Shown: positions 5,938-58,655 of the stretch, one piece after another
How positions within the stretch are numbered: the stretch's first letter is position 1
How the letters are laid out: every line of letters begins with the position of its first letter
Source of the DNA: a virus
Taxonomy: Duplodnaviria; Caudoviricetes
Strand: one strand, 5' to 3'
Virus record (IMG/VR): IMGVR_UViG_3300033073_001332
Coordinates: 64,001 to 128,000 of that record
Length of the DNA: 64,000 bases
The notes under the pieces: generated by a model
Databases searched by the model: none
What the model saw: the letters and a program-made list of their open reading frames with translations, nothing else
What the model was told of the DNA's origin: nothing
Translations under genes and position numbers: made by a program

Positions 5938-7776
5938 ATGGGAGCATTATTAGAATCAGGTCTTGTTGGTAACATTGGTTTGAAACACCTTAAAGTTATC
6001 AAAGAAGATACAATTAACAAATGGGATAAATTAGGATTCCTAGATGGTCTTAAAGGACACATTAAAGAGAACATGGCTCAATTATATGAGAACCAAGCAT
6101 CTCACCTTATTAACGAAGCAGCGTCTACAGATAGCTCAGGTTCTTTCGAAACTGTAGTTTTCCCTATCGTAAGACGTGTATTCTCTAAATTGTTGGCTAA
6201 TGATTTAGTATCTGTACAGGCTATGAACTTACCAATCGGTAAATTGTTCTACTTTGTACCTAAGATTCAAAATTACAACACTGCAACTGCATATGACAAT
6301 CCTCACTTTGCACCAATCGGAGCACAAAACGGACCAACACCTGCAGAATCACAAGCGGCATATCCAGCATCATCTAAAAACCTTTATGATAGATTTTATG
6401 AAGGTACTGAGCCGGATTTAGACCCAGCAGGTTTGTGGGATTATTCTAAAGGTGCTTACACAGCTATCACTAAAGCGGCTGTTACTTATGTATGGTCAAG
6501 TGGACAATTAGTTGAAGGTGCTTACACTACAACTAATGGTGGTACTGTTAACGGAGCTACTACAGGTGGTCCTGTTCACAGAAAAGTAATTATCGCTCTT
6601 TCTGGTTTCACATCAGGTGGTGCTGGTAAATTAATCGGACCTGATGGTCAAGTTATGGATAACGAAGCATTCTTATCTGACTTACAAGTTAAGGCTTATG
6701 CTAACACTGTAGCTCAAGCGGCGTTCTCAGGTTTAGGTGTAAATACACCATTACTTTTCAGAGTTGTTACTCAAAAATATGGTAAAGGTATTGTTCAATA
6801 TGGTACTCAAACGACTACTACATGGCCAGGTACTGGTAACGGTGGTTCTTATGATAACCTTTGTGACGCAGCTGGTATCATCTACTTAGAAGTTGATACT
6901 CAAGTTCCTGCAGCAATCGGAGCAGCATCTTTAGATGGTTACTCAGGATTTACTTTAGGTGCTTCTGCAACACAAACTGACGGACAATTCTACTGTACTT
7001 ACAGAATCTACCAAGAATTGGAATTCGAAGACAGAATTGGTGAAGTTTCTTTTGACCTTGAGTCAGTTACTGTATCTGTTACAGAAAGAAAACTAAGAGC
7101 ACAATGGTCTCCTGAATTAGCTCAAGACGTTGCGGCGTTCCATAACATCGATGCTGAGGCTGAGTTAACTGCATTGTTATCTGAGCAAGTAGCTGCTGAG
7201 ATTGACCGTGAAATTTTACGTGACTTACGTAAAGGAGCGGCTTGGAATTTACGTTGGGATTACAACGGATGGAGAAGAATCAACGCAACTACTGCGTATA
7301 CACAAAAAGACTGGAACCAAACATTGATTACTGCTATCAACCAATTGTCAGCACAAATCCACAAGTCAACACTTCGTGGTGGAGCTAACTGGATTGTTGT
7401 ATCTTCTGAGGTTTCTGCGATTTTTGATGATTTAGAATACTTCCACGTATCTAACGCGTCTCCTGAGCAAGACCAATACAACATGGGTATTGAAAGAGTT
7501 GGTACATTAGCTGGTCGTTACCAAGTTTACCGTGACCCTTATTTCCCACCAAACACAGTATTGTTGGGTCACAAAGGTACGTCATTGTTAGACACTGGTT
7601 ACGTTTACGCACCATATGTTCCTCTACAATTAACACCTACAATGTATAACCCATTCAACTTTACACCAATCAAAGGTATCATGACAAGATACGCTAAGAA
7701 AATGGTTAACAACCGTTTCTATGGTAAAATCACAGTTGATGGAGTTAGAACATTTGACTTAAGAGAATTGAGATAA
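5938..7776 (+). CDS. gp23: Major capsid protein, T4 gp23-like, with large central insertion
   Basis: VSVQAMNLPIGKLFY, RKLRAQWSPELAQD, DAEAELTALLSEQVAAEIDREI, GYVYAPYVPL, GIMTRYA. Confidence 0.96.
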   Translation: MGALLESGLVGNIGLKHLKVIKEDTINKWDKLGFLDGLKGHIKENMAQLYENQASHLINEAASTDSSGSFETVVFPIVRRVFSKLLANDLVSVQAMNLPIGKLFYFVPKIQNYNTATAYDNPHFAPIGAQNGPTPAESQAAYPASSKNLYDRFYEGTEPDLDPAGLWDYSKGAYTAITKAAVTYVWSSGQLVEGAYTTTNGGTVNGATTGGPVHRKVIIALSGFTSGGAGKLIGPDGQVMDNEAFLSDLQVKAYANTVAQAAFSGLGVNTPLLFRVVTQKYGKGIVQYGTQTTTTWPGTGNGGSYDNLCDAAGIIYLEVDTQVPAAIGAASLDGYSGFTLGASATQTDGQFYCTYRIYQELEFEDRIGEVSFDLESVTVSVTERKLRAQWSPELAQDVAAFHNIDAEAELTALLSEQVAAEIDREILRDLRKGAAWNLRWDYNGWRRINATTAYTQKDWNQTLITAINQLSAQIHKSTLRGGANWIVVSSEVSAIFDDLEYFHVSNASPEQDQYNMGIERVGTLAGRYQVYRDPYFPPNTVLLGHKGTSLLDTGYVYAPYVPLQLTPTMYNPFNFTPIKGIMTRYAKKMVNNRFYGKITVDGVRTFDLRELR

Positions 7777-7794
7777 TCAATTAAATTGAATAAG

Positions 7795-7825
7795 AAAAAG
7801 GTCGGTTTATCCGACCTTTTTTTTT
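7795..7825 (+). terminator. Rho-independent terminator after major capsid gene
   Basis: AAAAAGGTCGG-TTTAT-CCGACC followed by T9. Confidence 0.9.
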
Positions 7826-7844
7826 GTCTAAGATATTTATTAAT

Positions 7845-8783
7845 ATGAAAAGAAAAATAAATGAGGCTACAGTAACAGGTGGTTCTAGAGGTTCATACAT
7901 CGCCCCATTATTACCTGGTGAAAGATATTTTAAAAAAAATATATTAGCTCCGTTTACAATACAAGATTCAAAGTATAAAAGCCCTGATTTGCAATATGAT
8001 TCATATGACGGTAAAATGGAAAGAAGTAAAAAACAAATAGGTAAAGAAGAAAAGATAGCTAATAAAATATATAATTTTATTAAGTATCATCCTGATGCCA
8101 CTTATAGTGACACTGAGGGTAATCCTATAAATCAGTATCCTGGTAAAAACAAAAATATTGTTCCAATTAAAGAATGGGTAGAATTAGATAGTATTAATTT
8201 GAACGAGACATCAACTTCAACAAGTGCTGGTATATATAATGGACCTGTTGCTATCGGTTTAAAAAAATGGAAAAAAAATGAATTAGACCCATATACTGAA
8301 TTTGTCGACACCACATTTAATCATAGTAAAAAACAAAAAACACTTAAAAACAATAAAAAAGGGTATGTTGGTCATTGGGAACCTAATAAAGATGGTTCTT
8401 ATAGATTAGACAATCATGAAGCGTATGCAATAAATGAAGATTTGGCGGTTTGGTTTGGAAAAAAGAAAAAACCAAAGGGGTCAAAACAACCAAAAGGGCC
8501 ATGGGTGAACATATGTAGAAAAGTGGATGGAAAACATCCACCTTGTGGTAGACCTGACACTTCTAAAGGTGCATATCCTAAATGTAGGGCTGCAGGTGTT
8601 GCTGGTAAAATGAGTGATTCTGCTAAAAGAGCTGCGTGTGCACAAAAAAGAAAGGCTGAAAAAAATGACCCACAATCGGGTAAAGGTCAAAAACCTGTGA
8701 TGACTTCATACAAACCAAAAAAGAAAAGGACCCAAAATGAGTCCTTAGAAAAAATTATTAGAAATATATTAAGTTCACTTTAA
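7845..8783 (+). CDS. Basic modular protein, probable internal head protein (start ATG 7845)
   Basis: TATTTAT 4 nt upstream of ATG; modules separated by INE/IKE/LNE; Cys-containing basic C-module (CGR..YPKC). Confidence 0.65.
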   Translation: MKRKINEATVTGGSRGSYIAPLLPGERYFKKNILAPFTIQDSKYKSPDLQYDSYDGKMERSKKQIGKEEKIANKIYNFIKYHPDATYSDTEGNPINQYPGKNKNIVPIKEWVELDSINLNETSTSTSAGIYNGPVAIGLKKWKKNELDPYTEFVDTTFNHSKKQKTLKNNKKGYVGHWEPNKDGSYRLDNHEAYAINEDLAVWFGKKKKPKGSKQPKGPWVNICRKVDGKHPPCGRPDTSKGAYPKCRAAGVAGKMSDSAKRAACAQKRKAEKNDPQSGKGQKPVMTSYKPKKKRTQNESLEKIIRNILSSL

Positions 8784-9247
8784 CAATAAGTTCCTGAACA
8801 TCTTTTTTTACCATCTAATCCTGGCATTCGACCTTTACATACTTGGACTGCATAACCATTGGCGTATGCACTTGGGTAAACATCGAACTTAGATTTAGCA
8901 GCCGCTTTACCACGAGCACATAATTTAGTACCTGTTTTCTTACGACCTTCAGACATAACCATATCTTTATCGTCTATGTTCATAGAAAGTTCCATACCAT
9001 CTCTTTTTGATTCATTCATTATAAAATCAAATACTTGGTCCATATTATTTTTTGCTTCAGCAATGTGGTCTTGAGCCCAATCATGACCATTATCTAAAAT
9101 ACCCTCTACCATTGATTGGTCTAAGTCTAATAACAAATCACATTGTCTTCTCATTTGTTCTAAATTAGAAAAGAACATATATCTATTAGACCTCATATCG
9201 TGGTCTTCTTTCAACACTTTTTTAATGATTGAATCTAAATTTTTCAT
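8780..9247 (-). CDS. Hypothetical head-associated protein with KFDVYPSAYANG module
   Basis: N-terminal IIKKVLKE; conserved-looking LCARGKAAAKSKFDVYPSAYANGYAVQVCKG. Confidence 0.6.
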   Translation of the reverse strand: MKNLDSIIKKVLKEDHDMRSNRYMFFSNLEQMRRQCDLLLDLDQSMVEGILDNGHDWAQDHIAEAKNNMDQVFDFIMNESKRDGMELSMNIDDKDMVMSEGRKKTGTKLCARGKAAAKSKFDVYPSAYANGYAVQVCKGRMPGLDGKKRCSGTYC

Positions 9248-9249
9248 AA

Positions 9250-10728
9250 TTATTTTTTATTAACGATTTGGAACTGAAGTTCCCTTTTATAAGTATCTAC
9301 ATTTCTATCTGAAACGACCTTTAAATCAATGAAATATTCATTTGGTATTTTGTCTGTGGTATCAAATATAAAATAGTATGAATCAGGTGTTTTATTTATC
9401 CTTGTCCAATCTTGAACTTGAACTTCGGTATTACCACCTTCTTTAACGTATACTCTATAATACGCCTCAATATTATTTAATACTTTATTTGGTGAATATG
9501 CTTGTTTTATTGTGACGTCAACTTTTCTTATGTCGGTATTTAAAATCTGTTCATTTTGTTTTATACCCCCAAAAGAAAACCCGTATATCTTAGGTGTGTT
9601 TGTTGTTGAACCGATAGTATAATTTCCATTTTTAGCTAACATTACAAATTCATTTTGTACGTTTGCAATAGATGTTGAACCAATTGATAATCCTTTCCAT
9701 AAATCATAATACAAACATGGAATGGTTGTTCCCGTCAATCCACTAACAACCACTTTATATACCCCTTTTGTGACCTGACACGTTGTTAAACCTGTGAAGC
9801 CTTGTATTGGGGTTTCATTACTATCTAAAATGTCTACAGTGGGGTTAGAATTCAAATTAACCGCATTACCATTCTCATAAACATATAGGTATAAGTTATT
9901 TACGTTTCCAGCATAAAAAGAATTTCTATCATCATCGATAAAATCATTATAGTTTGTTTCTAAAAATGGTTCATAGAATGTTTGTGTATGTGGGGAAAAG
10001 AACCCAACCGAATAATTTTCAGTTAGACCTGAAATATTCTCAACTGACGGAAGATAAGAAATAATCCATCCTGCTGGTGCCGGTGTATTTCCTGTTAATA
10101 TTGAATTAATTTCGTTAGTCATATCAAACTCAATATCTTCATTACCGAATTCAAAATGTTGTGTGTCGATAACCGTAAGTGCTGAGTAATTTAATCCTGT
10201 TAAACCTGTTAAGGAATTTGTGTTGTTGTAGATACCAGGAGTTGACCAACCTGATATAGTTGTTGCTTGAAACCAATTCGATGGTCTATTAGAAAATGAC
10301 CTATCATTGAAGTTTGTTACACCAAAGTCATAATAGTCATACCCAACACCACTATCCCAACTTTGAGTGGTTCCTGTTGAACCTGAATATCTTGGTATTC
10401 TTAATAATTGTAAATCAAAAGATGTTGCTCTTCTTCTACCTTGACTTGTTTTATCATTCAATAATTCGTTATCAAAAAATGAAGTGTTTGTCATCCTTAA
10501 AGTATGTGTTGGGTTAACACTGCAACCCGTTACAATTACTTTATTATTATAGTTTGCAGTTAACCCCGATAAATCAATATTAAAAATATATCTACTAAAT
10601 CCTGTAGGGTTTGCAGAATTACTTAAGTTACCATAAAATAACTCAACAATTGGGTTTCTACCCGTATTAGTATATGAGTTAAATAATATTGTATTTGACT
10701 TACTGAAATAAGACCTATAAATTGACAT
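9250..10728 (-). CDS. Putative virion structural protein (Ser/Thr/Gly-rich, beta-rich)
   Basis: 492 aa, TATTTAT upstream, about 12 [ST]-G-x-[ST] motifs. Confidence 0.6.
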   Translation of the reverse strand: MSIYRSYFSKSNTILFNSYTNTGRNPIVELFYGNLSNSANPTGFSRYIFNIDLSGLTANYNNKVIVTGCSVNPTHTLRMTNTSFFDNELLNDKTSQGRRRATSFDLQLLRIPRYSGSTGTTQSWDSGVGYDYYDFGVTNFNDRSFSNRPSNWFQATTISGWSTPGIYNNTNSLTGLTGLNYSALTVIDTQHFEFGNEDIEFDMTNEINSILTGNTPAPAGWIISYLPSVENISGLTENYSVGFFSPHTQTFYEPFLETNYNDFIDDDRNSFYAGNVNNLYLYVYENGNAVNLNSNPTVDILDSNETPIQGFTGLTTCQVTKGVYKVVVSGLTGTTIPCLYYDLWKGLSIGSTSIANVQNEFVMLAKNGNYTIGSTTNTPKIYGFSFGGIKQNEQILNTDIRKVDVTIKQAYSPNKVLNNIEAYYRVYVKEGGNTEVQVQDWTRINKTPDSYYFIFDTTDKIPNEYFIDLKVVSDRNVDTYKRELQFQIVNKK

Positions 10729-14894: not shown

Positions 14895-15647
14895 TTATTG
14901 ATTATGTATTTTTCTTAAAGTATCTAAATATAATGTTTTATATTTTTTTAGATATGACCTTATTTCTTTTGTGTTAAGGTTAGTCATTTCTCTTAAGGTT
15001 AGTAATACAATATTTTTATTGAATTTATTATTGTCGTTACCTATAAAAATATTCCCATAATCCTCAAAAAGTTCAATTAAAGCGTACCCTAACTTACTTT
15101 CATTATCTTGTAGGTCTGTATCGTTTACATATTTTTTCAAATCGTTTAAAAAAACGTCTATAATCTTTTCAGCATCTATTTTTTCAAACTCTAAATAATA
15201 GACCATATCCGGTCTATTTTCTAATGTACCGGATATGTCCTCATATGAAATTTTTCTATTAGTTTCTTTTTGGTCTTTCAGAATTTGACCCATCAAGTAA
15301 TTTTTACAGATGGTACCAAAATAAGAATATGCTTTTTTATTTTTGGCAGGTTTAAACTTATCGACTTTAGTCATTAGGAAAGAATGGGTATCACTATGAA
15401 TATCATTATAATTCATATCCTTCCTATAAAGTTTATACCTTCTTATGATTGATTCAATCATCTTATCAAGAGGTTCTCTTAAAAATTGGTTATATATAAC
15501 TTCTTTTTCTTGTTTGGTGTCGGCTATTATATAAGCCTTTACCGCCTCTTCTTCACGTACATCGAAGTAATTATTTTTTTTTACTTTCTTTTCCGTCTTA
15601 TTCTCTTCGTAAGTAACTTCTAAAACAGTTCCTGACGATACAAACAT
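14895..15647 (-). CDS. Late-transcription sigma factor, T4 gp55-like
   Basis: Sigma region-2-like KFKPAKNKKAYSYFGTICKNYL resembles gp55-family NFD..K..NPFAYFTQ; N-terminal NYF motif; 250 aa. Confidence 0.65.
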   Translation of the reverse strand: MFVSSGTVLEVTYEENKTEKKVKKNNYFDVREEEAVKAYIIADTKQEKEVIYNQFLREPLDKMIESIIRRYKLYRKDMNYNDIHSDTHSFLMTKVDKFKPAKNKKAYSYFGTICKNYLMGQILKDQKETNRKISYEDISGTLENRPDMVYYLEFEKIDAEKIIDVFLNDLKKYVNDTDLQDNESKLGYALIELFEDYGNIFIGNDNNKFNKNIVLLTLREMTNLNTKEIRSYLKKYKTLYLDTLRKIHNQ

Positions 15648-16453
15648 TATATTTCCTGTGGTTCATATTTTATATTTCTATCTGATGTGAAAAAATGTTC
15701 TTTTTTCGCGGCTTCAATCCAAAAAGTAACCTCATCATCTGAAATTTTATTCTGACCATTTTTGTAATTCCAGAATATTGAACCTTCTCTTAGGTTCATG
15801 TGTTTGTAACCTATTCTAGGAATAGTCATGATTTGTGCTGAGTTATAAGTCAATCTTAATAAAAATTCATATACAAACGTAAGTTTGAATGATGGTTTAA
15901 ATCCTCCATTATCTTGGTATGTTGATTTTTTCACAACCATTCCACTTGTTTGGAAGTTTTGATAATTCATCAAAACGTCATTAGTTAAATAACCAATTTC
16001 AGAATTTAAACTGGCTGCAAATGTTGCTTCATTTGTAAATCCAACAAACATACCTTTTTCGTCAGTATCGACAACTAATGGTAAGAATGCATCTACTTCA
16101 GGATAAGCGTTAATAAATCTTTTTACATTTTTAAACCAAATTGTAGAGTACTCATCATCAAATTCTAAAACACTAATCCATTCCTCTTTTGAGTTTTCAA
16201 CACCAAGATTGACTTGTGAACAAAAATCAACTTTACCTTTATTTTCCACAAAGTTCATAGTAAGACCACTATAATCGAATGCCTCTAACAAAGTTTTTAG
16301 ACCATCTTCATCTGAATGTACCACAATAACTTCTGAAGGTTTTGTATCCTGAATTTGTAAGGATTTAATTGCTCTTTCATAAAACAAATCGAAATCTTTT
16401 TGTTTCGATGAGTTAATCGGGATAATTACCGATACGTTTAAATTATTTTCCAT
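15647..16453 (-). CDS. Glycosyltransferase family 2
   Basis: VSVIIP, EVIVV, NLGV, LEFDD (DxD-like) GT-A motifs. Confidence 0.8.
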   Translation of the reverse strand: MENNLNVSVIIPINSSKQKDFDLFYERAIKSLQIQDTKPSEVIVVHSDEDGLKTLLEAFDYSGLTMNFVENKGKVDFCSQVNLGVENSKEEWISVLEFDDEYSTIWFKNVKRFINAYPEVDAFLPLVVDTDEKGMFVGFTNEATFAASLNSEIGYLTNDVLMNYQNFQTSGMVVKKSTYQDNGGFKPSFKLTFVYEFLLRLTYNSAQIMTIPRIGYKHMNLREGSIFWNYKNGQNKISDDEVTFWIEAAKKEHFFTSDRNIKYEPQEI

Positions 16454-16457
16454 AATA

Positions 16458-17525
16458 TTATCTTGTTTCTTCTGTTACGTTTAGTTTATTTAGTTGTTCT
16501 TTAAATACCTCTTTTCGTGTTGTAAAATATTCATTGAATAATTCTAAAACTGAAGATTCAAATTTAGATTTATCTGAGTAAGATGATGACGTTTTTTCCA
16601 TCCCTTCGTATAAACTTTCAGAAATATTATCCTCTAACCAATTTTGAATGAAATTTGCAATAACATCTACAATATCATTAAATTGATTTAACCAAATACC
16701 ATTTTCTTCTGTTATCCATTCTGGTACCATGTTAGGAATTTTACCTAAAACAGGAGTACCGACTAACATAGATTCTAATGGGTATGTACCAAATGATGAT
16801 TCATTATCAACCCACACACTCAAAAATGATTCTTTTAAGAATTTAGAAAAATCATTCATGTTAATACCTCTCATATCTCTAAAGGTAATCCATCTATATT
16901 GTGGATACTTTAGATAAAAAGTTTTAATAATTTTAGCTGTATCTCTTTGGTCGCGAGTATGAATAGAAATAATTGGTTTTGAAGGTTTATCTTTTTTAGA
17001 AAAAACTTCAGAAATGTAAGGTGTTAATACATCAACACTAACATTTTTCATTACTTCTGAAATATATTTTTTCTGATTTTCAGACGTTGTAATACATTTG
17101 AAAAATCCAAGTTGTGTCCATGTAACACCAGGTGCTAATGTTTCTAACATATGGTCATATGCTTGACACAATACTATTTTACCACATGGTAAGTTTTTAA
17201 TTTGTTCCATAACATGACCATAAAGTTCAGGTAATACGATTATATCTTCAGGTGAAATTGCTAAATTTTGACCATCGATACATTGATGAGGTAATTCCAT
17301 ATAACTTTCGTTTAACCAAGATGAAACACCTTCATACTCTTTTGTTTCGTGGATAATGATTGGGTTATAACCTGAATTTTTCAAGGTTAATGCCATATCA
17401 TAAATGTATTTTATGGATGCTTTTGGGTTACCTTTAGTATCCTGTACTAAAAAATAAATTCTTGCAGTTTTTTCTTCTAAGTTTTTAATCGAACCTTCAA
17501 TTTTTGTAATTTTATCTAATTCCAT
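16458..17525 (-). CDS. GT-B fold glycosyltransferase (GT4-like)
   Basis: DIIVLPE, ESSFGTYPLESMLVGTPV (Ex7E-like). Confidence 0.75.
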   Translation of the reverse strand: MELDKITKIEGSIKNLEEKTARIYFLVQDTKGNPKASIKYIYDMALTLKNSGYNPIIIHETKEYEGVSSWLNESYMELPHQCIDGQNLAISPEDIIVLPELYGHVMEQIKNLPCGKIVLCQAYDHMLETLAPGVTWTQLGFFKCITTSENQKKYISEVMKNVSVDVLTPYISEVFSKKDKPSKPIISIHTRDQRDTAKIIKTFYLKYPQYRWITFRDMRGINMNDFSKFLKESFLSVWVDNESSFGTYPLESMLVGTPVLGKIPNMVPEWITEENGIWLNQFNDIVDVIANFIQNWLEDNISESLYEGMEKTSSSYSDKSKFESSVLELFNEYFTTRKEVFKEQLNKLNVTEETR

Positions 17526-22210: not shown

Positions 22211-22212
22211 TG

Positions 22213-23076
22213 TTACAAAAATGAATTTGCGGAGTTTATTATTTCTTCAAATGTATTATCATGAATAAAATTTGCCTTTAAATGAACTTTTGTGGTTTCT
22301 TTAGGTAACCAATCAACAATCGACATTTTATTTCGACAGCTAGTCATATTTGTTAAAACCATATTTTTTTTCATACCACCAACCATTGGCCAAATACCAC
22401 TATCGGTTGATATGAAAACTTTACATTTGGATAATAAGTATAAATCATCATTTATTGTTTTATTTTCCACTTTGGTAAAATCAACTATATTTTCATGTAT
22501 AGGCATGGGAGTTTGATTTTTATCACCAATCCTATAAACTTTGTATCCTAAATTTGCATAATGTAACGCAATATTAAAAAACGTATTAATATCCACAAAC
22601 CTTGATGGTTCAGAATCGTTACCATCAATTCTTTTCCAAAATGTGTTTTTTTCTCTGAATTGTAGAACTATCGTATCACTTGGTATGTTGTGAACGTTAG
22701 AATAATTTTCTTCGTTAAATATTAATCTTGTTTCAGGTGATAATTTAAGGTCTTCCCACATACCGTTATATGTCAAACCGTGATGTGCATATGCGGATGG
22801 CATGTATATATCTTTAAATTCTTCCGTACCGTATAAATTATTATTTAATATATCACCGATATTTTGAATATTTAATCCATCAAAAATTTTTGGGAAGAAT
22901 TTAATATTATTTTCATTAATGTTTGGTATACATAACGCAAAATATTTTTGGAATTCGTGTTCCACATAAATTGTAGGATTATCGTCAGGATTTACATCCA
23001 AGTATTGAGCTAAACCATATACATGTTCGGCGGAATTTCCTAATGCGTCGTCATGTCTCCATATTCCATATTTCAT
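22213..23076 (-). CDS. Putative glycosyltransferase (GT9/TIGR04372-like C-terminal domain)
   Basis: LGN N-motif, LQFRE, YRIGD, FISTDSG. Confidence 0.55.
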   Translation of the reverse strand: MKYGIWRHDDALGNSAEHVYGLAQYLDVNPDDNPTIYVEHEFQKYFALCIPNINENNIKFFPKIFDGLNIQNIGDILNNNLYGTEEFKDIYMPSAYAHHGLTYNGMWEDLKLSPETRLIFNEENYSNVHNIPSDTIVLQFREKNTFWKRIDGNDSEPSRFVDINTFFNIALHYANLGYKVYRIGDKNQTPMPIHENIVDFTKVENKTINDDLYLLSKCKVFISTDSGIWPMVGGMKKNMVLTNMTSCRNKMSIVDWLPKETTKVHLKANFIHDNTFEEIINSANSFL

Positions 23077-43796: not shown

Positions 43797-43836
43797 ACAA
43801 TACAACAATGATTAATATATTTATAAAATAAAAATT

Positions 43837-45906
43837 ATGGCACTTACAGGTAAAACTATATCAGAATTAAATTATTTATCGGCAGCAACAAGCAATACTC
43901 TGTTTCCTGTTGAATTATCGGGTTTAACTTATTATGTCCCGTATTCTGGTATGACCGGAATTGTAGGTGGGAATACACCAATATCTATCACATATGATGA
44001 ATTATATTCACTATACACTGGAGGAACTTTAAGTGCCGGTAGACTTTATTTAATTACAGATTTTCAAACCTGTTACGACCAACCAAATTATGATAGTCAA
44101 GGAACACCTATTACTACTGGAAATTTTAAATCAGGTAATACAGAACAAATTGTTGTTTTAGCAACGGCAAGTAATAAATTATCACCACAAGCTTATTCAT
44201 TGGATTATCCTGATGATATATTAAAATATGACATAACTTTCAGATTTACTGAGGTAACTAATACCCGAGCAAAAGGAAGGATAACAGAACGTATTGATAG
44301 ATTTAATAATAGAACAGACTATGATTTTAGAGCAGTTCAATTTATTAGATATGTTGGGTATTTCTCTGAAAGATTTTATGATGGTAAAATTACCTTAACA
44401 TCAAGTAATGGTCTTGTCACAGGTACAACAACGTTGTTTTTAAGTAATTTCTCTAACGGCGATATTTTTGGTGTTTACTACCCTTATGGAGCAACTTTAT
44501 CTTGCTTCAAATATTACGAAATTACATCAATAGTTAGTGATACTGAAATGTATGTCACAGGTAGGACTTTAACAGATATAAGTAATACCTATTTCTCAAG
44601 AGGTTTAACATTACCTAATTATAGTAGTCCTTTTCAAAACAACGTTACGGGAGGTACAAACGATGATTTTGCAGAATATTATACATTTGATGAAAATAGC
44701 TACGGAACTTATATCGGAAATAATAGTGATTATTACGTCTTTATACTTTCAAATAATGTATTCAAAGCTGGAAATTATTACAATAATATTTTTGGGGAAA
44801 ACTCAATTTGTAACACTTTAGATGATGATATGGATTCAAACACATTCGGACCTTTTTCATCATTTAATATTTTAACTAATGATTTTGACAGGAATACGGT
44901 AGGTCCTTTCTTTGAAAGTAATATTATCGATTGTGATATGGAAGGTAATATTATAGGTGAAAGATTTTCATTTAATATGATTGGTGATGCAGACGGACCC
45001 GACTTTGATTACAATAGAATTGGTTTTGGTTATAGATATAATTTTTTAACCTTGAATAATAATTCGTTTAGTAATAATGATATTGGGTATAATTTTTCAA
45101 GTAATATTATTGATAGTGGTTTTAGAAATAATGTTGTAGTTGGGGACTTTACTCTGAACGTAATTGTTTATAATGATTTTAATGATAATTTTATAGGTAA
45201 TAATTTCTACAATAATAATATCCCTGTTGGATTCTCAAATAACAATATAGGGGGTCAATTTTATGACAACAATATTTGGAGTGTTTTTAATGACAATACT
45301 TTAGGTGAAAATGTTTTTACAAATAACTTTGGTAATCCAAATAGTATAGGAACATACCAATTCAATGGTAATAAAATCGGAGGAGACTTTGGGAATAATT
45401 ATTTTTCAGGTAATACTCAATTCAATACTATTGGTTTTTCATGTACGACTAATCATGTGGACAATAATTTTTCATATAATCAAATAGGTTATGGTTTTTA
45501 TAATAATACGATAGCTAATGATTTTGGCTTTGGTGGCGGTAACTACAGAGGAAATATTATTGGTAACGGATTTGTGTCTAATGTGATAGGGGAATATTGT
45601 TATGATAATACATTTGGTGACGAATGTGCTTCTAATAATCTTGGGAACTATTTCACAAACAATAAGATTTCACACTCTTTTAACAATGTAACTACAGTTG
45701 ACTTAGACACTTCAGGTTATTTTCAAAATAATAATTTTACCTACGGATTTTTCAATGTGAATTTAACGTTAACAGGAGGAACAGGTGGAAACCCAATATT
45801 TTACACACAAATAACTACTAATGTTGTAAAAGACTCGGTGGATAATACGGGTTACGTTACCTTCTTGAGTGGTGGTACAATAGTTGCCAGAACAATAATT
45901 GTTTAA
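43837..45906 (+). CDS. Tail fibre/appendage-like protein with C-terminal beta-helix repeats
   Basis: KTISEL N-terminus, YLITDFQT, many N-x-I-G-x-x-F-x-x-N repeats. Confidence 0.65.
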   Translation: MALTGKTISELNYLSAATSNTLFPVELSGLTYYVPYSGMTGIVGGNTPISITYDELYSLYTGGTLSAGRLYLITDFQTCYDQPNYDSQGTPITTGNFKSGNTEQIVVLATASNKLSPQAYSLDYPDDILKYDITFRFTEVTNTRAKGRITERIDRFNNRTDYDFRAVQFIRYVGYFSERFYDGKITLTSSNGLVTGTTTLFLSNFSNGDIFGVYYPYGATLSCFKYYEITSIVSDTEMYVTGRTLTDISNTYFSRGLTLPNYSSPFQNNVTGGTNDDFAEYYTFDENSYGTYIGNNSDYYVFILSNNVFKAGNYYNNIFGENSICNTLDDDMDSNTFGPFSSFNILTNDFDRNTVGPFFESNIIDCDMEGNIIGERFSFNMIGDADGPDFDYNRIGFGYRYNFLTLNNNSFSNNDIGYNFSSNIIDSGFRNNVVVGDFTLNVIVYNDFNDNFIGNNFYNNNIPVGFSNNNIGGQFYDNNIWSVFNDNTLGENVFTNNFGNPNSIGTYQFNGNKIGGDFGNNYFSGNTQFNTIGFSCTTNHVDNNFSYNQIGYGFYNNTIANDFGFGGGNYRGNIIGNGFVSNVIGEYCYDNTFGDECASNNLGNYFTNNKISHSFNNVTTVDLDTSGYFQNNNFTYGFFNVNLTLTGGTGGNPIFYTQITTNVVKDSVDNTGYVTFLSGGTIVARTIIV

Positions 45907-46300: not shown

Positions 46301-46360
46301 AGACGAAGGTAAATGTCGAACCTATTCGACAGCAAATACACCAAACTTAAATATAAAATT

Positions 46361-49186
46361 ATGGTTCCACAAGAAGAAATTGAACGCTTTTTATTAGGCG
46401 AAGACGACGAAAAATATATCGTTTCACTCGAATACGATTACAAATCCTCAAAAATTTATAAAGTAATACAAGACCCTATTAAGGGTAAGTTGTTACGTCC
46501 TGACACATTTATCCCATTTGCTTGGGTTGGTGACTTAAAGGGTAAAAACTTTTATAAAAACGATAAACACGCACAAAAACGTGCGATGAGTGAGAACGGT
46601 ATTATCATAGAAAAATTAGATACTCACGGAGACGAACGTTTAGAGAACGGATTAAAATACATCGTTAAAACAACAAAATCATATTCAAACCTTGTAAACT
46701 TCTTTAAGGGTGGAGGTTTAGACCCGTGGGGTAGAGATAATACGGATAGTATCCAAATCCTATCACCGGTAGAACAATACTTAATTCAAAAAAACAAACG
46801 ACTATTCAAAGGGTTTGAGGAATACGATGAAATCCACAGGTTCGTATTCGATATCGAGACCACAGGTCTTGACCCCAAAACAAGTAAGATATTCTTGATA
46901 GGGATGAAAGACAATCGTGGCTTCTTAAAATTATTATCAGCACAAAATGAAGATGAAGAACGTCAAATGATTGTTGACTTCTTTAAGACTATTGATGAAT
47001 TGAAACCATCTTTAGTTGGTGGTTACAACTCAGCATTCTTTGACTTCCCATTCATTTTGAAACGTGCTGAGATTTTGAAATTGAACATCAAAAAAATATG
47101 TAAGACATTACATCCTGATTATACTTTGAAACAAAAAGATGGTATCCTAAAGTTAGCAAACGAAATGGAACCATATGTACAAACACAAATGTGGGGATAT
47201 AACATTGTAGATATCGCACATGCTGTTCGTAGAGCTCAAGCAATCAACTCAGATATTAAGAGTTGGTCTTTGAAGTACATCACCAAATTTATTGAAGCCG
47301 AAAAAGCGAGTCGTGTTTATGTAGAAGGGGATAAGATTGGTAAAATATATTTTGAAAATGAGGATTACTTTTTGAATCCTGAAAGTGGTGGATTTAAGAA
47401 GGTAGGTATGCCAGGTACTGAAAATCTATTGGAAAGATTTCCTGGTAAGTTTTTAGAAGTAAAAGGTTCAAACATTATTGAACGATACTTGGACGATGAC
47501 CTTTATGAAACGATGGTAGTTGACGAGCAGTTCAATCAAGCAAACTTCTTATTGTCAAAGCTTGTACCAACAACATACGAAAGACTTTCAACGATGGGAA
47601 CTGCAACATTATGGAAAATGATTATGTCCGCATGGTCTTATAAACATAATTTAGCAATCCCAAGAAAGTTAGAGAAACGAAAGTTTACAGGTGGTCTTTC
47701 TCGTTTAGTACAGGTAGGTTATTCTAAAAACGTATTGAAACTTGACTACTCTTCACTATATCCTTCTATTCAGTTGGTTCATGATGTGTTCCCCGCTTGT
47801 GATGTAACGGGAGCAATGAAAAGTATGTTAAAGTACTTCCGAGACACTCGTATCAAGTACAAGAATTTGGCAAGTGAATATAAAACAATTGACCCGAAAC
47901 TTGCAATTTCATATGACAGAAAGCAGTTACCAATCAAAATCTTTATTAACGCATTCTTTGGTTCGTTATCTGCACCACAAGTATTTCCGTGGGGTGATAT
48001 TGATATGGGTGAACAAATTACTTGTACAGGTAGACAATACCTTCGTCAGATGATTATGTTCTTTATGAAAAGAGGTTATGTTCCATTAGTAATGGACACC
48101 GATGGTGTGAACTTTGAAACCCCACAAGATAGAATTGACTACAAGTATATTGGTAAGGGTCTTAACGGGTTAGTAAAAGAAGGAAAAGAATATGTTGGAG
48201 CAGAGGCTGATGTTGCTGAGTATAATGACCTATTCTTACGTGGAGAAATGGGTCTCGATATTGATGGGGTATGGCCTTCAACCATTAACGTGGCTCGTAA
48301 AAACTACGCACTTCTAACAGACAAAGGAAAAGTTAAACTTACAGGTAATACCATTAAATCTAAAAAACTTCAAACATATGTTGCAGAATTTTTGGATACT
48401 GGTCTACGAATGTTATTAGACGGTAAGGGTGGTGAGTTTTTAGATTTCTACTACGAATATGTAGAAAAACTTTACTATAGGCAAATTCCTTTGGCTAAAA
48501 TCGCAAACAAAGCCCGTGTTAAACAATCTATTGATGATTACAAAGTTCACATTACTAAAACAACAAAGGCTGGTAATATGATGTCCCGTCAAGCACACAT
48601 GGAACTTTTAATTAAAGAAGGTAAAAATCCTGGTCTTGGTGATACTATTTTTTACGTAAACAATGGAGAAAAGAAATCACATGGTGATGTACAAAAAAAG
48701 AAAGATGAACTTGTTTTGAATTGTTATCTGATTGATGAGAGGGATATTGAAATGAATCCTGATTTATTAGGTGAATATAATGTCCCAAGATATTTGGCAG
48801 CTTTCAATAAAAGAATTGAACCTCTATTGGTTGTCTACAAACCTGAAATCAGAGAAGACATTCTAATTGAAGACCCTAAGGATAGACCAATATTTACAAA
48901 ATCACAAACTGAATTGGTTCGTGGTTATCCTATGAAAGAAGCACATCAAGATACTTTAGATGAGGTACTTTCATTATCTGATATGGAGTTAACATTTTGG
49001 CAGAGTGTTGGAATTGACCCATACTACATGTATTTAGAAAATACTTTAGATTTAGTGGATATGGATTGGGTTGGAAAAAATAGACATATGATGGATGAGT
49101 ATGTAAAACAAAACAAGAAAGTAGACCAAGACGAATATTATGAATTTGATGCTGATGGAGATTTGATGGCTCTTAGTTTCGACTAA
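46361..49186 (+). CDS. polB: Family B DNA polymerase (start likely ATG 46361)
   Basis: ExoI FDIETTG, GYNSAFFD; LDYSSLYPS, KIFINAFFG, MDTDG, KNYA. Confidence 0.96.
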   Translation: MVPQEEIERFLLGEDDEKYIVSLEYDYKSSKIYKVIQDPIKGKLLRPDTFIPFAWVGDLKGKNFYKNDKHAQKRAMSENGIIIEKLDTHGDERLENGLKYIVKTTKSYSNLVNFFKGGGLDPWGRDNTDSIQILSPVEQYLIQKNKRLFKGFEEYDEIHRFVFDIETTGLDPKTSKIFLIGMKDNRGFLKLLSAQNEDEERQMIVDFFKTIDELKPSLVGGYNSAFFDFPFILKRAEILKLNIKKICKTLHPDYTLKQKDGILKLANEMEPYVQTQMWGYNIVDIAHAVRRAQAINSDIKSWSLKYITKFIEAEKASRVYVEGDKIGKIYFENEDYFLNPESGGFKKVGMPGTENLLERFPGKFLEVKGSNIIERYLDDDLYETMVVDEQFNQANFLLSKLVPTTYERLSTMGTATLWKMIMSAWSYKHNLAIPRKLEKRKFTGGLSRLVQVGYSKNVLKLDYSSLYPSIQLVHDVFPACDVTGAMKSMLKYFRDTRIKYKNLASEYKTIDPKLAISYDRKQLPIKIFINAFFGSLSAPQVFPWGDIDMGEQITCTGRQYLRQMIMFFMKRGYVPLVMDTDGVNFETPQDRIDYKYIGKGLNGLVKEGKEYVGAEADVAEYNDLFLRGEMGLDIDGVWPSTINVARKNYALLTDKGKVKLTGNTIKSKKLQTYVAEFLDTGLRMLLDGKGGEFLDFYYEYVEKLYYRQIPLAKIANKARVKQSIDDYKVHITKTTKAGNMMSRQAHMELLIKEGKNPGLGDTIFYVNNGEKKSHGDVQKKKDELVLNCYLIDERDIEMNPDLLGEYNVPRYLAAFNKRIEPLLVVYKPEIREDILIEDPKDRPIFTKSQTELVRGYPMKEAHQDTLDEVLSLSDMELTFWQSVGIDPYYMYLENTLDLVDMDWVGKNRHMMDEYVKQNKKVDQDEYYEFDADGDLMALSFD

Positions 49187-55442: not shown

Positions 55443-58400
55443 ATGGCATCATCTAATAAAGTTTTTGTTTCACCAGGTGTATACACATCTGAAAGAGACT
55501 TAACGTTTGTAGCACAAAGTGTAGGTGTAACTACTTTAGGAGTTGTTGGTGAAACTTTACAAGGACCAGCATTTGAACCTATTTTCATCACTAACTTTGA
55601 CGAATTCCAAACGTATTTCGGTGGAACAAGTCCTGAAAAATTCGTTAACACCCAAATTCCAAAATATGAGTTAGGTTATATTGCAAAATCATACCTATCA
55701 CAATCCAATCAATTATTTGTAACAAGAGTACTTGGACTTTCAGGTTATGATGCGGGTCCATCTTGGTCAATTGTAACTATTGGTAATGTTAACCCCGCTA
55801 CAATTGCTGCGACAGGTACTACGGGTCCTGTAGCTGTTACATTTACAGGTACAACTGGAGGAACGGTAACATTAACTTCTGTACCATCATCAATCAACGT
55901 AGGGGGTAATTTTTATAACCCTTACACTGAATTCAATGGTGGAACTTCATCAATTGCATCTGATTTACAAAGTTATTTATCAACACAAATTAATTTATTT
56001 GCAACATCTTCATCTGCATCAGGAGCAACATCTATATTGTGGGGAACTTCAAGTGCATCAACACTGACTAGTGTTACTGGTGTTACTTCCCTTAACACTA
56101 TTACAGGTTCTACTGAAATGTTTGGTGTGAATAATGTGAATTTAGCGTACGCTAATTTATCAGCAGCAACAAACGACGCATGGTACTATGGATTATTTAA
56201 CTACTATCAAGGTACTAATGATGTGAATACTTACTACGGTCAAAGTTTAGGGGCATCCCTTTCAGGTATTTCAACAACACCTACAAGTGGTGTTTACTCA
56301 GGAACGGTTGCATTCTTTACTACCGCTTATTCAGGAGCACCTTATTCAACATACGATGATATGGTAGTTGCTACTTTAAGGTCTCGTGGTATATCAAACT
56401 ATAGTTCATCACAATCAGGACCATCATATGAAGTAACAGGATTAACTGATGTTTCAATGATTTGTACTGGTGGATATTCAGCGGTTACTAAAAACCCATA
56501 TTCGACATTCCAAATCTCAGGTGTTACATATGACGGAAATCCGTTCACGTTTGAAACTTCTATGTTGAATACAAACAAAAATTATGTTAGAAACGTATTT
56601 GGAGCATCTAACTTTGGTAAAGATAGAACTGAAGTTCCATTATTTGTTGAGGAAACGTATTCAGCACTTTTACAAACAGGATACAGAGCAGGTCAAATTA
56701 GAGGTTTATATTGTGATTTAGTTGCTCTTGATAAAGCACGTTCATTGAATACAGATAGTATTGGTTTCTACTTAGAACAATACCAAACACCAGAAACACC
56801 ATTTGTGGTTTCAGAACTTAGAGGTAATAAAGTATTCAAACTATTTAAGTTTGTTTTAATCTCAGACGGAAACGCGGCTAACACATACGTTAAACTTTCA
56901 ATTGGTAATATTTCATTCAATACTGGTACATTTGATGTATTTGTAAGAGACTTCTTTGATAATGACCAAAATGTTAAAGTATTAGAAAGTTTTACAAATT
57001 GTTCATTAGACCCATCACAAAACAATTATATCGCAAACAAAATTGGTACATCGAATGGTGAATACCAAGTTAAATCAAAATTTGTGATGTTAGAAATGAG
57101 TGATGAGGCACCGATAGACGCATTACCATGTGGTTTTGAAGGATACATTATGAGAGAATATGCAAATGCTACTCCTCCGTTTGTCCCTTACAAAACAAAA
57201 TATTACACAGCTGGTGAAACAATTTATAACCCACCATTCGGTTCAACAAGTGGAGGTGATAATCCTGTAATATCAAGTGGTGAAAATCCAAGAAGAGCTT
57301 ACTTAGGTATATCTAACATTACAGGATATGACTATGACTTCTTCCAATATAAAGGAAAACAATTACCAACAAACTTAGCAACAGATACAACAGGACCAGC
57401 ATGGGGTTACCTTACTAAAGGTTTCCACATGGATAGTGGAGCTACTGTAGTTACTATCACAAACGCATACGCAACTTCAGGACAATCCGCATTTGAAGTA
57501 GGAGTTGGAGCATTTAATTCAGAACCGACAGATACTTCAAATCCTTACTATAAATTAAACACTCGTAAATTTACGGTATTAGCTTACGGAGGTTTTGATG
57601 GTTGGGATATCTACAGAGAGTATAGAACAAATAGTGATTCATATGCTTTAGGTCAAACAGGTTTCAAATACGGAGCAGCAAGTTCACCAACATACCCAAC
57701 AGCAACAGGATGGGGAGCATTCAAAGCAATCTCAGGTCCTAACCAAGAAAGTTGGGCAAATACTGACTACTACGCTTACAAATGGGGTCAATCAACATTT
57801 GCAAATCCTGAATCAACAAATATTAACGTATTTGCAACACCAGGAATTGATTATGTAAACAACTCAAACTTAGTTGAGGATGCGATTGATATGATTGAAA
57901 CAGATAGAGCTGACTCAATTTACATTACAACTACACCTGACTTTAACATGTTCTTACCTTCATACCAAGACATTAGTGAAGGTTTGATTTACCCACAAGA
58001 GGCAGTTGACAACTTAGAAGGAACAGGAATTGATTCTAACTACACGGCAACTTACTACCCGTGGGTATTGACAAGAGATACGGTTAATAACACTCAAATC
58101 TACATTCCTGCAACTTCAGAGGTTGTAAGAAACTTAGCATTAACTGATAACATCGCGTTTCCTTGGTTCGCTTCAGCGGGTTACACAAGAGGTCTTGTAA
58201 ATGCAATTAGAGCAAGACGTAAGTTGACTCAAGATGATAGAGACACTCTATACAAAGGAAGAATCAACCCAATCGCTACTTTCTCTGATGTGGGTACGGT
58301 AATTTGGGGTAACAAAACAATGCAAATTAGAGAATCTGCGCTTGACAGAATTAATGTAAGAAGGTTGTTGTTACAAGCTCGTAAATTGATTTCAGCAGTA

Positions 58401-58655
58401 GCGGTTAGATTATTGTTTGAACAAAACGACAACAAAGTAAGACAAGACTTCTTAGATTCAGTTAACCCAATCTTAGACCAAATTAGAAGAGACAGAGGTT
58501 TGATTGACTTTAGAGTTCAAGTTTCTAACACACCTGAAGATTTAGATTCAAATACATTGACAGGTAAAATCTTCTTAAAACCAACAAGAGCGTTAGAATA
58601 CATTGATATCGAATTTGTTATCACACCAACAGGAGCGTCATTTGACAACATCTAA
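55443..58655 (+). CDS. gp18: Contractile tail sheath protein with large insertion
   Basis: SPGVYTSERD, GPAFEP, F..YFG, WFASAGYTRG, RINPI, WGNKT, RINVRRLL, PTRALEYI. Confidence 0.95.
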   Translation: MASSNKVFVSPGVYTSERDLTFVAQSVGVTTLGVVGETLQGPAFEPIFITNFDEFQTYFGGTSPEKFVNTQIPKYELGYIAKSYLSQSNQLFVTRVLGLSGYDAGPSWSIVTIGNVNPATIAATGTTGPVAVTFTGTTGGTVTLTSVPSSINVGGNFYNPYTEFNGGTSSIASDLQSYLSTQINLFATSSSASGATSILWGTSSASTLTSVTGVTSLNTITGSTEMFGVNNVNLAYANLSAATNDAWYYGLFNYYQGTNDVNTYYGQSLGASLSGISTTPTSGVYSGTVAFFTTAYSGAPYSTYDDMVVATLRSRGISNYSSSQSGPSYEVTGLTDVSMICTGGYSAVTKNPYSTFQISGVTYDGNPFTFETSMLNTNKNYVRNVFGASNFGKDRTEVPLFVEETYSALLQTGYRAGQIRGLYCDLVALDKARSLNTDSIGFYLEQYQTPETPFVVSELRGNKVFKLFKFVLISDGNAANTYVKLSIGNISFNTGTFDVFVRDFFDNDQNVKVLESFTNCSLDPSQNNYIANKIGTSNGEYQVKSKFVMLEMSDEAPIDALPCGFEGYIMREYANATPPFVPYKTKYYTAGETIYNPPFGSTSGGDNPVISSGENPRRAYLGISNITGYDYDFFQYKGKQLPTNLATDTTGPAWGYLTKGFHMDSGATVVTITNAYATSGQSAFEVGVGAFNSEPTDTSNPYYKLNTRKFTVLAYGGFDGWDIYREYRTNSDSYALGQTGFKYGAASSPTYPTATGWGAFKAISGPNQESWANTDYYAYKWGQSTFANPESTNINVFATPGIDYVNNSNLVEDAIDMIETDRADSIYITTTPDFNMFLPSYQDISEGLIYPQEAVDNLEGTGIDSNYTATYYPWVLTRDTVNNTQIYIPATSEVVRNLALTDNIAFPWFASAGYTRGLVNAIRARRKLTQDDRDTLYKGRINPIATFSDVGTVIWGNKTMQIRESALDRINVRRLLLQARKLISAVAVRLLFEQNDNKVRQDFLDSVNPILDQIRRDRGLIDFRVQVSNTPEDLDSNTLTGKIFLKPTRALEYIDIEFVITPTGASFDNI

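Follow-up and report, generated by a model that had tools for sequence, protein, structure and literature searches.

A Ser/Thr-Gly-x-Thr motif under selection in the outer virion proteins of uncultured aquatic T4-like phages is a credible candidate signal for a phage-made sugar coat

Introduction

To our knowledge, experiments have demonstrated glycosylation of a phage's own particle by phage-encoded enzymes in no more than a few actinobacteriophages, and we know of no acceptor sequon for any phage. The virion proteins of mycobacteriophages are reportedly O-glycosylated by phage-encoded glycosyltransferases (GTs), the acceptors being said to be C-terminal extensions of the capsid and tail-tube subunits, with no tetrapeptide sequon described. 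Among bacterial systems, Maf enzymes glycosylate surface-exposed Ser and Thr residues, often after hydrophobic residues, without a strict sequon being known, and in the collagen-like Bacillus glycoprotein BclA it is the Thr of G-x-T triplets that is glycosylated, tandem T-G-x-T units carrying O-glycans. As far as we know, the lipopolysaccharide (LPS) islands of aquatic phages are usually read as serving modification of the host surface, and no virion acceptor motif has been attached to them. The heptosyltransferase TibC O-heptosylates Ser, and Ser only, in its substrate TibA, at the sites N-S-G-G-A (Ser313) and T-S-A-A-V (PMC4358343), and recognition in the BAHT family as a whole is thought to be structural rather than based on a linear sequon (PMC5000012). 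Here we describe a motif in the virion proteins of an uncultured, aquatic, T4-like phage, found in a stretch of 64,000 nucleotides (the window) that comprises bases 64001-128000 of the 219,553-bp IMG/VR virus record IMGVR_UViG_3300033073_001332. This short linear motif, hydrophobic-[Ser/Thr]-Gly-[hydrophobic/Gly/Thr]-Thr, is maintained by selection across a large clade of uncultured aquatic phages. It is carried by proteins that face outward on the virion, namely a Hoc-like tandem of Ig domains, ConA-like fibre-type proteins, the outer insertion of the tail sheath and, beyond the window, baseplate and fibre proteins. Sequence comparison makes Ser/Thr-Gly-x-Thr a credible candidate for the attachment signal of a phage-made sugar coat.

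The record has an estimated completeness of 75% and a G+C content of about 32%. The window encodes a T4-type portal, a prohead protease, a capsid protein of the Gp23 family, a tail sheath of 1070 amino acids (aa), a DNA polymerase and an SNF2 helicase. Judged by the capsid protein, the nearest phages are the cultured Flavobacterium phage immuto, Microcystis phage Mel-JY01 and Rhodothermus phage RM378 and the uncultured, 484-kb LR756508, all at only 35-43% identity, and a megablast search with 7.5 kb against cultured phages gave no match. No paper describing an [ST]-G-x-[ST] virion motif was found in a literature search.

Enrichment of the motif in outward-facing virion proteins

Four proteins of the window are rich in [ST]-G-x-[ST]: a 492-aa Hoc-like protein (9250-10728, minus strand), a 716-aa ConA-like jelly-roll protein (41646-43796, plus strand), a 689-aa protein of unknown family (43837-45906, plus strand) and the 1070-aa tail sheath (55443-58655, plus strand). 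The initial annotation had counted about 12, 13, 11 and 12 copies by hand, figures that hold up at 12, 13, 11 and 13, respectively. The numbers expected from 1000 whole-protein shuffles per protein are 1.3, 1.8, 2.3 and 3.8, corresponding to z scores of 9.7, 8.9, 6.0 and 5.0. When shuffling was confined to segments of 10, 20 or 40 residues, z still reached 3.5-8.5, and with both whole-protein and local shuffles p was below 0.001 for each of the four. Overall, the motif occurs in outward-facing particle proteins of the phage and of its numerous relatives at four to ten times the rate expected by chance. The 957-aa DNA polymerase (46313-49186, plus strand) served as negative control and contains one motif against 0.5 expected, namely the single TGNT reported earlier, located at residue 677. 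The shuffle test that had been proposed as a check of the motif thus returned a strong excess in the four rich proteins (z 5-10) and none in the polymerase.

Across the whole genome, 13 of 197 open reading frames (ORFs) are enriched, an enriched protein being one with at least 5 motif copies and a z of at least 3. Beyond the window, these include most of the large proteins of the baseplate/fibre module at 152-180 kb. No enrichment was found in the portal, the protease, the capsid protein, the polymerase and other replication proteins, any of the GTs or two giant proteins of 2041 and 2317 aa, and a 162-aa ORF adjoining the sheath gene (59834-60322) has no motif and is likewise not enriched.

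The order of the residues is decisive. Within the motif-rich set, the ratio to expectation is 3.95 for [ST]G.[ST] and 0.9-1.2, that is without enrichment, for the permuted patterns G[ST].[ST], [ST][ST].G, [ST]G..[ST] and [ST]..G[ST]. Collagen-like tracts raise some neighbouring arrangements, such as [ST]G[ST]. and [ST].G[ST], to about twice expectation in the wider protein set. The dipeptide [ST]G is followed by x[ST] in 59% of cases, compared with 23% for other xG dipeptides. Codon choice within the motif matches the background and draws on both families of Ser codons, which identifies the motif as a feature of the protein and rules out a signal at the DNA level.

Sequence preferences extend the tetrapeptide. 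Position -1 prefers Leu, Val, Ile, Tyr and Phe, in agreement with the earlier remark that copies often follow a hydrophobic residue, and position +2 prefers Leu, Gly, Thr, Tyr and Met, with no enrichment of charged residues or Pro. Ser and Thr are equally common at position 0, Thr far outnumbers Ser at +3 (41:8) and Gly is mildly preferred at +4. The resulting extended motif, hydrophobic-[ST]-G-[hydrophobic/G/T]-T, was seen 53 times against 4.6 expected, and no signature was detected outside positions -1 to +4, Tyr at +8 being only 1.4-fold enriched. Genome-wide, [ST]-A-x-[ST] is also enriched in the motif-rich proteins (54 against 24.6, z 5.7, 2.2-fold), so the +1 position may accept Ala besides Gly. 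Copies follow one another at a spacing of 3 residues (9 against 2.7 expected) and of 6 residues (6 against 2.5) more often than expected, and [ST]G.[ST]G was seen 19 times against 3.2. The known bacterial sequons D[ST][AILVMT], NxS/T and [DE]xNx[ST] show no enrichment, Asn-x-Ser/Thr being counted 34 times against 36 expected and D-[ST]-[AILVMT] 136 times against 159.

Motif-bearing proteins of the window

The 492-aa protein with 12 motifs is encoded next to the major capsid gene. Its AlphaFold model (pLDDT 67) consists of tandem Ig-like domains and matches titin Z1Z2, Sap S-layer domains, FN3-like modules and Hoc of phage RB49; these matches, together with the location of the gene beside the capsid gene, make it a predicted Hoc-like decoration protein. 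More than 2860 database clusters were matched by this protein, those listed being 65-90% identical and nearly all 484-504 aa long. Members of the family contain 2-12 motifs (median 7), compared with about 1.3 expected. The size and conservation of the family, found on contigs of up to 305 kb, point to a very abundant group of uncultured phages.

The 716-aa protein carries 13 motifs. Its model (pTM 0.76) yields only weak fold matches (E of at least 0.05), to lectin-like jelly rolls and a cyanopodophage tailspike. Relatives have the N-terminal 545 residues in common and vary at the C-terminus, a pattern as found in receptor-binding proteins, and the protein is probably a fibre or receptor-binding protein. 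In 128 representatives of 50%-identity clusters of this family, 1240 motifs were found against 267 expected, and z is at least 3 in 98 of the 128. A Cys-rich segment with conserved spacing (...TCxC... and ...TGxCxTTGxCxxTGxT...) is interleaved with motifs at residues ~285-400 of the 716-aa protein, in a part of the model predicted with low confidence. The adjoining 689-aa protein has 11 motifs, no Pfam or PHROG match and a homologue in one of three related genomes.

The tail sheath, identified through both Pfam and PHROG sheath matches, contains 13 motifs, ten of which are located in an insertion at residues 124-360 (~55812-56531), while the sheath profiles match only residues ~790-1068. The earlier statement that copies lie in insertions is thus correct for the sheath, where 10 of 13 are outside the profile-matched core. 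In the major capsid protein (5938-7776, plus strand; Pfam Gp23, E 1.7e-73), SGFT occurs at residues 222 and 336. These two copies, which the initial annotation had assigned to a capsid insertion, do precede the main Gp23 match (residues 356-599) and neither is C-terminal, but they do not amount to a significant excess on their own (2 seen against 1.1-1.7 expected, p 0.3). Both fit the extended motif and are kept in three of four and four of four related genomes, respectively.

All-against-all BLASTP searches revealed no similarity among the motif-rich proteins, and Pfam and PHROGs returned nothing for three of the four in the window, and a hidden shared domain was rejected on these grounds. 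Their predicted folds also differ, comprising an Ig-like tandem, a ConA-like jelly roll and a sheath insertion. In the two models in which it was evaluated, the secondary-structure context is mixed: motifs open or close a strand, occupy coil or, in one instance, form a helix N-cap. Of 25 motif Gly residues, 23 are in coil, compared with 76-83% of Gly overall, and 16 of 25 motifs are at most 4 residues from a strand. The argument that unrelated folds speak against a shared structural repeat is therefore sound as far as differing folds and absent BLASTP similarity go, yet a structural turn motif is still a serious rival.

Distribution and conservation of motif sites

The source genome (G000) was compared with three related records, two of them whole and the third represented by its first 160 kb: G001 (292 kb, 99% complete), G002 (229 kb, 76% complete) and G003 (166 kb). 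Besides the 13 enriched proteins of the source genome, 13, 13 and 9 were found in G001, G002 and G003, respectively, and these are orthologues of those in the source genome. Six control genomes were processed in the same way, part of them being scored with a z threshold of 2.5. T4, Flavobacterium phage immuto and RM378 have no enriched protein, LR756508 (484 kb) has one, S-SM2 two and Mel-JY01 three. Sheath proteins of the clade contain 10-13 motifs (10-12 in the orthologues of the relatives), compared with 1 in Mel-JY01 and 5 in the Flavobacterium phage. Given the low counts in the control genomes, motif enrichment is a trait of this lineage and no general property of the outer proteins of T4-like phages.

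Individual motif sites were compared in the nine rich proteins among 92 ortholog quartets of the four genomes, with thirteen control patterns for reference. Sites kept in all four genomes number 47, compared with 2-11 for the control patterns, and sites kept in three genomes number 18, compared with 1-15. A further 65 sites were found in a single genome each, where the controls gave 19-63 (permuted arrangements of [ST] and G: 32-63). The excess thus resides in shared sites rather than in singletons, which argues for purifying selection on existing sites. An accelerated gain of new ones is rejected, as singletons are no commoner than in the controls. The initial annotation had described the motif as convergently accumulated, a view not upheld by an excess found in sites common to four genomes (47 vs 2-11). 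Of the 12 sites of the Hoc-like protein, a single one is retained by more than 95% of family members, and replacements are coupled, SGLT or TGLT alternating with TDLQ or SDLQ and TGCT with TDCG. Motif sites are better described as conserved, with some turnover.

A soluble glycan locus with conserved ends and a variable middle

A co-oriented run of sugar genes of ~23 kb occupies the minus strand from 15647 to ~36441. At one end are a gene for a GT2-family glycosyltransferase (15647-16453; Pfam Glycos_transf_2, E 1.9e-6) and one for a GT-B glycosyltransferase of GT1/GT4-like type (16458-17525; weak Glycos_transf_1 match), both predicted to be soluble and both candidates for the enzyme that reads the motif or initiates glycosylation. 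The best solved relative of the GT-B enzyme is 8xsg (E 1.6e-6), a structure cited in a paper on an Actinobacillus minor glucoside glucosyltransferase. The opposite conserved end encodes a GT-A/GT-B fusion glycosyltransferase (34804-36441, minus strand; Pfam Glyco_tranf_2_5 and Glyco_transf_4), with homologues in all three related genomes at 59-76% identity, partial in two of them. The middle of the locus (19187-34800, minus strand) is variable and, according to Pfam, encodes sugar-nucleotide synthesis and further GTs. Taken together, the transferases recognized by Pfam are the GT2, the GT-B, a STELLO-like GT, a GT11, a GT10, a second GT2 and the GT-A/GT-B fusion. Sugar-nucleotide and tailoring enzymes comprise a GDP-mannose dehydratase (GMD), a DegT aminotransferase, an epimerase, NeuB, a SIS-domain protein and a short-chain dehydrogenase/reductase (SDR), to which a class IV aminotransferase, a CMP-sugar synthetase and a carbamoyltransferase are added. 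A 242-aa Maf-like protein is encoded at 28326-29054 on the minus strand (PF01973 MptE-like, E 1.1e-15), and NeuB (E 6.5e-61) and CTP_transf_3 (E 5e-29) are found near this PF01973 gene.

In the region 14510-38996, which spans the whole glycan locus, 28 of 29 ORFs have no segment resembling a transmembrane helix and none has more than one. The pathway therefore lacks a membrane component, that is a flippase, a polymerase or a lipid-carrier transferase; it looks entirely soluble, and its acceptor is presumably soluble as well. The stop codon of the GT2 gene is overlapped by the start of a gene for a 250-aa protein (14895-15647, minus strand) with a weak match to the sigma-70 family (NCBIfam TIGR02937, E 0.0018) and 78-83% identity in the relatives; the protein may serve as a late sigma factor whose translation is linked to that of the glycan genes.

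Synteny across the four genomes shows that the ends of the locus are conserved and that the middle is different in each. The conserved genes are those for the GT2, the GT-B and PhoH at one end and those for the GT-A/GT-B fusion, a dUTPase-like protein, an exonuclease-like protein and a 404-aa ORF at the other. Most of 19187-34800 has no counterpart in G001-G003, and the same is true of 22213-32436, which contains the genes for the Maf-like protein, NeuB, the CMP-sugar synthetase, two aminotransferase or SDR enzymes and the carbamoyltransferase; the Maf-like protein, searched for directly, gave no match in G001-G004. As G001-G003 are fully enriched without this Maf/NeuB cassette, the motif is independent of it, and co-variation between the two is ruled out by these three equally enriched relatives.

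The conserved GT2 and GT-B genes follow the clade closely. They were found in 65 and 64, respectively, of the 66 related loci that reach that far, they share a strand with the Hoc-like gene at a distance of 5 kb, and the nearest Atlas clusters, in the case of the GT2 all of them, are viral for both. No tblastn match to either was obtained in 50,697 cultured-phage records, and neither is present in the six control genomes, which are unenriched or weakly enriched. At the level of the clade, four genomes with motif enrichment and GT2/GT-B are thus set against six with neither, which is one phylogenetic split. The pattern is compatible with a role of the pair as reader but amounts to one coincidence at clade level.

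Co-variation with genes of the locus middle was evaluated in 54 related loci with complete flanks. Hoc-like proteins have more motifs where PhoH is followed by GMD (7.8 vs 6.0, Mann-Whitney p 0.017) or by DegT (10.2 vs 6.4). Among phylogenetically independent pairs, an underpowered comparison for both genes, GMD gave 3 pairs in the same direction, 0.6 in the opposite one and 6.4 without difference (n = 10), and DegT essentially no difference (n = 5). The raw relation of GMD and DegT to the number of Hoc-like motifs thus vanishes in independent pairs, which show no significant co-variation for either gene. The initial annotation had suggested testing among related phages for co-variation of motif density with the GT locus; with most of the locus, the Maf/NeuB cassette included, the density does not co-vary, and with GMD and DegT no significant relation was found. 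Its proposal that the motif is an acceptor sequon for the GTs of the window is partly borne out, a soluble GT locus with a clade-conserved GT2/GT-B pair being present and most of that locus failing to track the motif.

A TibC-type heptosyltransferase domain outside the window

A 1527-aa multi-domain glycosyltransferase is encoded on the minus strand at genome positions 40176-44759 (L160:2177-6760), 19.2-23.8 kb before the start of the window. According to Pfam it combines GT25-, GT1- and GT9-type domains with methyltransferase domains. Residues ~970-1291 align with residues 61-386 of TibC (4rb4; phmmer E 4.9e-68, 233 bits). In TibC, Asp110 is catalytic, T226, K230, W305 and R286 bind the sugar and Cys residues form an iron finger (PMC4358343). 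The position of the catalytic Asp110, T226, K230, W305 and the cysteines of the iron finger (CxxC...WCP...FEC) are kept in the phage protein, while R286 is replaced by Val. By homology this is a clear TibC/AAH-type candidate protein O-heptosyltransferase domain, and its presence means that the phage encodes a member of a protein-glycosylating family whose acceptor context is Ser-Gly. The gene adjoins that of a 3196-aa G-[ST]-[SN] protein with 480 overlapping [ST]G.[ST] copies.

Two phages separate this enzyme from the dispersed motif. In G002, no homologue of the 1527-aa protein was found by BLASTP or tblastn, either at the syntenic place or in the 229 kb of this 76% complete genome, and its sheath, ConA-like and fibre proteins nevertheless contain 10-16 motifs, with only 3 in the Hoc-like protein. 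Mel-JY01 (PP395634.1, ~635-9986) encodes a 51%-identical TibC-like domain (7441-8403) in a 1227-aa ORF flanked by two Ser/Gly-rich proteins, one of 805 aa with 86 motif copies and one of 180 aa with 11, and shows no virion-wide enrichment. The motif without the enzyme in G002 and the enzyme without virion-wide enrichment in Mel-JY01 led to the heptosyltransferase being rejected as the reader of the dispersed motif. Mel-JY01 is a tractable cultured system for studying phage protein heptosylation. At 29.4-44.1 kb of G002, the site occupied elsewhere by the heptosyltransferase and the giant array, different motif-rich proteins are encoded (601 aa with 24 copies, 467 aa with 24 and 1810 aa with 55).

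Proposed function and alternative explanations

An order-specific motif that is found in unrelated folds, in outer virion proteins only, and in one lineage that has its own soluble GTs suggests a reader acting in trans. We hypothesize, at a probability of about 0.42, that the motif is a glycosylation sequon read by a conserved phage GT. Enzymes of the phage would then O-glycosylate its virion proteins in the cytoplasm, as the particle is assembled or earlier, with the motif as the site that is recognized or that accepts the sugar. The reaction would be initiated by a clade-conserved, phage-specific soluble GT encoded beside the virion genes, either the GT2 (15647-16453) or the GT-B (16458-17525), perhaps the fusion (34804-36441), while sugars peculiar to each lineage would be provided and extended by enzymes of the exchangeable locus middle. 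Glycan attachment, the acceptor residue and the enzyme that reads the motif are what we infer here. A bolder form of the proposal, in which hydrophobic-[ST]-G-x-T, placed in exposed domains of many unrelated virion proteins throughout a very abundant group of T4-like and jumbo phages, is a true tetrapeptide sequon read by a phage-only pair of soluble GTs and an exchangeable cassette sets the sugar, amounting to a programmable virion glycan coat, is tentative and rather doubtful.

Several observations weigh against glycosylation as the function of the motif. It is kept where the Maf/NeuB cassette is absent, the relation of GMD and DegT to Hoc-like motif number is lost in independent pairs, and the link between the motif and the GT2/GT-B pair rests on a single split between clade and non-clade genomes. 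It also persists in G002 without the heptosyltransferase, an enzyme that Mel-JY01 has without virion-wide enrichment. The glycan locus could instead serve modification of DNA or of the host surface. About half of the motif sites fall into low-confidence segments of the models, and hydrophobic residues at -1 and +2 as well as positional conservation are equally expected of a strand bulge or turn.

The last point leads to the serious rival, a structural element favoured in beta-rich outer domains and kept by folding constraints. Here the motif would be a strand-edge turn or Gly beta-bulge, formed by an ST-turn followed by Gly with the hydrophobic flanks in the core, which is inherited and read by no enzyme. 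Such an element would account for the excess in positionally conserved sites (47 in all four genomes), for sites kept in proteins of only 35-55% identity with +2 staying hydrophobic (TGYT/TGFT; TGLT/TGIT/TGVT), for the hydrophobic preferences at -1 and +2 and for a motif Gly that is usually in coil (23/25) with a strand often nearby (16/25, within 4 residues). The Ig-like character of the 492-aa protein fits as well, as does one sheath copy in the conserved C-terminal domain common to distant phages (TGAS/TGAT), and some copies resemble E-F loops of FN3 type (...SGLSGGTY and ...TGLTQGTY, in a protein at genome positions 165482-168508). An FN3 E-F loop is nevertheless rejected as the general cause: only a subset of copies fits, no Tyr-corner signal is seen (Tyr at +8 is 1.4-fold enriched, with no signature past -1 to +4), and an Ig-like fold is predicted for the 492-aa protein only, in which the 12 motifs occupy mixed contexts. 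The ConA-like protein carries the motif as well. Folding constraints in general would also have to produce the same tetrapeptide in unrelated predicted folds without sequence similarity and in mixed secondary-structure contexts that include a helix N-cap. No Ig or FN3 domain is found by Pfam at E of at most 0.01. No such enrichment is seen in the sheaths and other outer proteins of T4, the Flavobacterium phage, RM378, LR756508 and Mel-JY01, and Hoc-like proteins that are 65-75% identical have anything from 2 to 12 motifs, SGLT for instance giving way to TDLQ in a coupled change. On balance we regard a purely structural origin as the less likely of the two, though as a rival to be reckoned with, and the facts that suggest a reader and those that suggest a structural element are mutually compatible.

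A reader other than a GT would explain a clade- and order-specific motif confined to outer proteins of unrelated fold just as well, as these features leave the nature of the reader unspecified. It could be a different modification enzyme, for instance a kinase or another transferase, or else a chaperone of assembly or a protein that binds to the outer virion proteins to cement or decorate them. No candidate kinase or chaperone was identified, whereas a large soluble glycan locus is interleaved with late and virion genes and a domain of a known protein O-glycosyltransferase family is encoded in the genome, making a non-GT reader improbable. Could the TibC/AAH-type domain itself read the motif, the tetrapeptides being single units of the 3196-aa G-[ST]-[SN] array as the main substrate of the enzyme? 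The strong homology (E 5e-68) with catalytic and iron-finger residues kept, the neighbouring 3196-aa protein with its 480 overlapping motifs, the resemblance of the TibC sites N-S-G-G-A and T-S-A-A-V to a motif whose [ST]A.[ST] variant is 2.2-fold enriched here, a GmhA-like SIS gene in the window and the two very motif-rich neighbours of the Mel-JY01 homologue would all agree with this, and G002, the sole lineage without the enzyme, has the lowest Hoc-like count (3). Yet G002, at 76% completeness, has its 10-16 motifs per sheath, ConA-like and fibre protein without the enzyme, and Mel-JY01 has the enzyme with a single sheath motif and other virion proteins unenriched. TibC moreover uses Ser only, whereas Thr equals Ser at position 0 and dominates at +3 here, and its Arg286 is not conserved; we therefore consider this explanation quite improbable. 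That the motif is a product of chance or of the composition of Ser/Thr/Gly-rich proteins is hardly credible. The rich proteins do have raised Ser, Thr and Gly contents, and collagen-like tracts do yield the ~2-fold excess of [ST]G[ST]. and [ST].G[ST], but whole and local shuffles give p < 0.001 each, most permuted patterns stay near 1, and the enrichment is repeated in three other genomes and in 98 of 128 representatives of one family. Composition and local low complexity are effectively refuted by the shuffles and the permuted-pattern controls.

Implications

If glycosylation of the motif is confirmed, it would represent the first defined O-glycosylation sequon of a bacterial virus, and sequence alone would suffice to predict which virion proteins are glycosylated in thousands of uncultured aquatic phages. 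The soluble 'LPS-like' islands of aquatic phages would gain a substrate, and the hypervariable middle of the locus would represent variation of the particle surface, perhaps as a means of evading host receptors, defences or grazers. If the motif is structural, it would still be a strong lineage-specific signature of outer virion domains and would help to annotate proteins that belong to no family.

Comparison with known systems

The mycobacteriophage system is similar in that soluble GTs, encoded by the phage beside its structural genes, reportedly act in the cytoplasm on capsid and tail proteins of the phage itself. In contrast to that system, the motif described here is dispersed over the outer domains of many proteins, the capsid protein is not enriched, and the GT families are different, phage-specific and known from sequence alone. 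Aquatic T4-like phages with GT or 'LPS' islands share the arrangement of co-oriented soluble GTs and sugar-nucleotide enzymes with a variable middle, and homologues of the GT11 and GT10 are present in cyanophage S-SM2; unlike the motif clade, S-SM2 has only two enriched proteins.

Members of the BAHT family, represented by TibC and AAH acting on TibA and AIDA-I, O-glycosylate Ser in the cytoplasm, on beta-rich repeat proteins and at a site, N-S-G-G-A, that resembles the motif (PMC4358343). The homologue found here differs in being one domain of a 1527-aa multi-GT protein encoded outside the window, and the motif persists without it. Glycosylation of flagellin with nonulosonate by Maf has its counterpart in a PF01973 gene located beside those for NeuB and a CMP-sugar synthetase; the product here is 242 aa long rather than roughly 600, and the cassette is found only in this one of four genomes, whereas the motif is common to all.

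BclA is matched by the above-expectation spacing of 3 residues, the excess of [ST]G.[ST]G and the giant G-x-y arrays of the same genome. Most copies of the motif are, unlike those of BclA, isolated tetrapeptides in globular beta-rich domains that do not form triple-helix repeats. Asn-x-Ser/Thr and the Bacteroidota sequon D-[ST]-[AILVMT] are comparable as short linear acceptor motifs spread over many unrelated surface proteins. Both of these act at the membrane on exported proteins, whereas the locus described here is without a membrane component.

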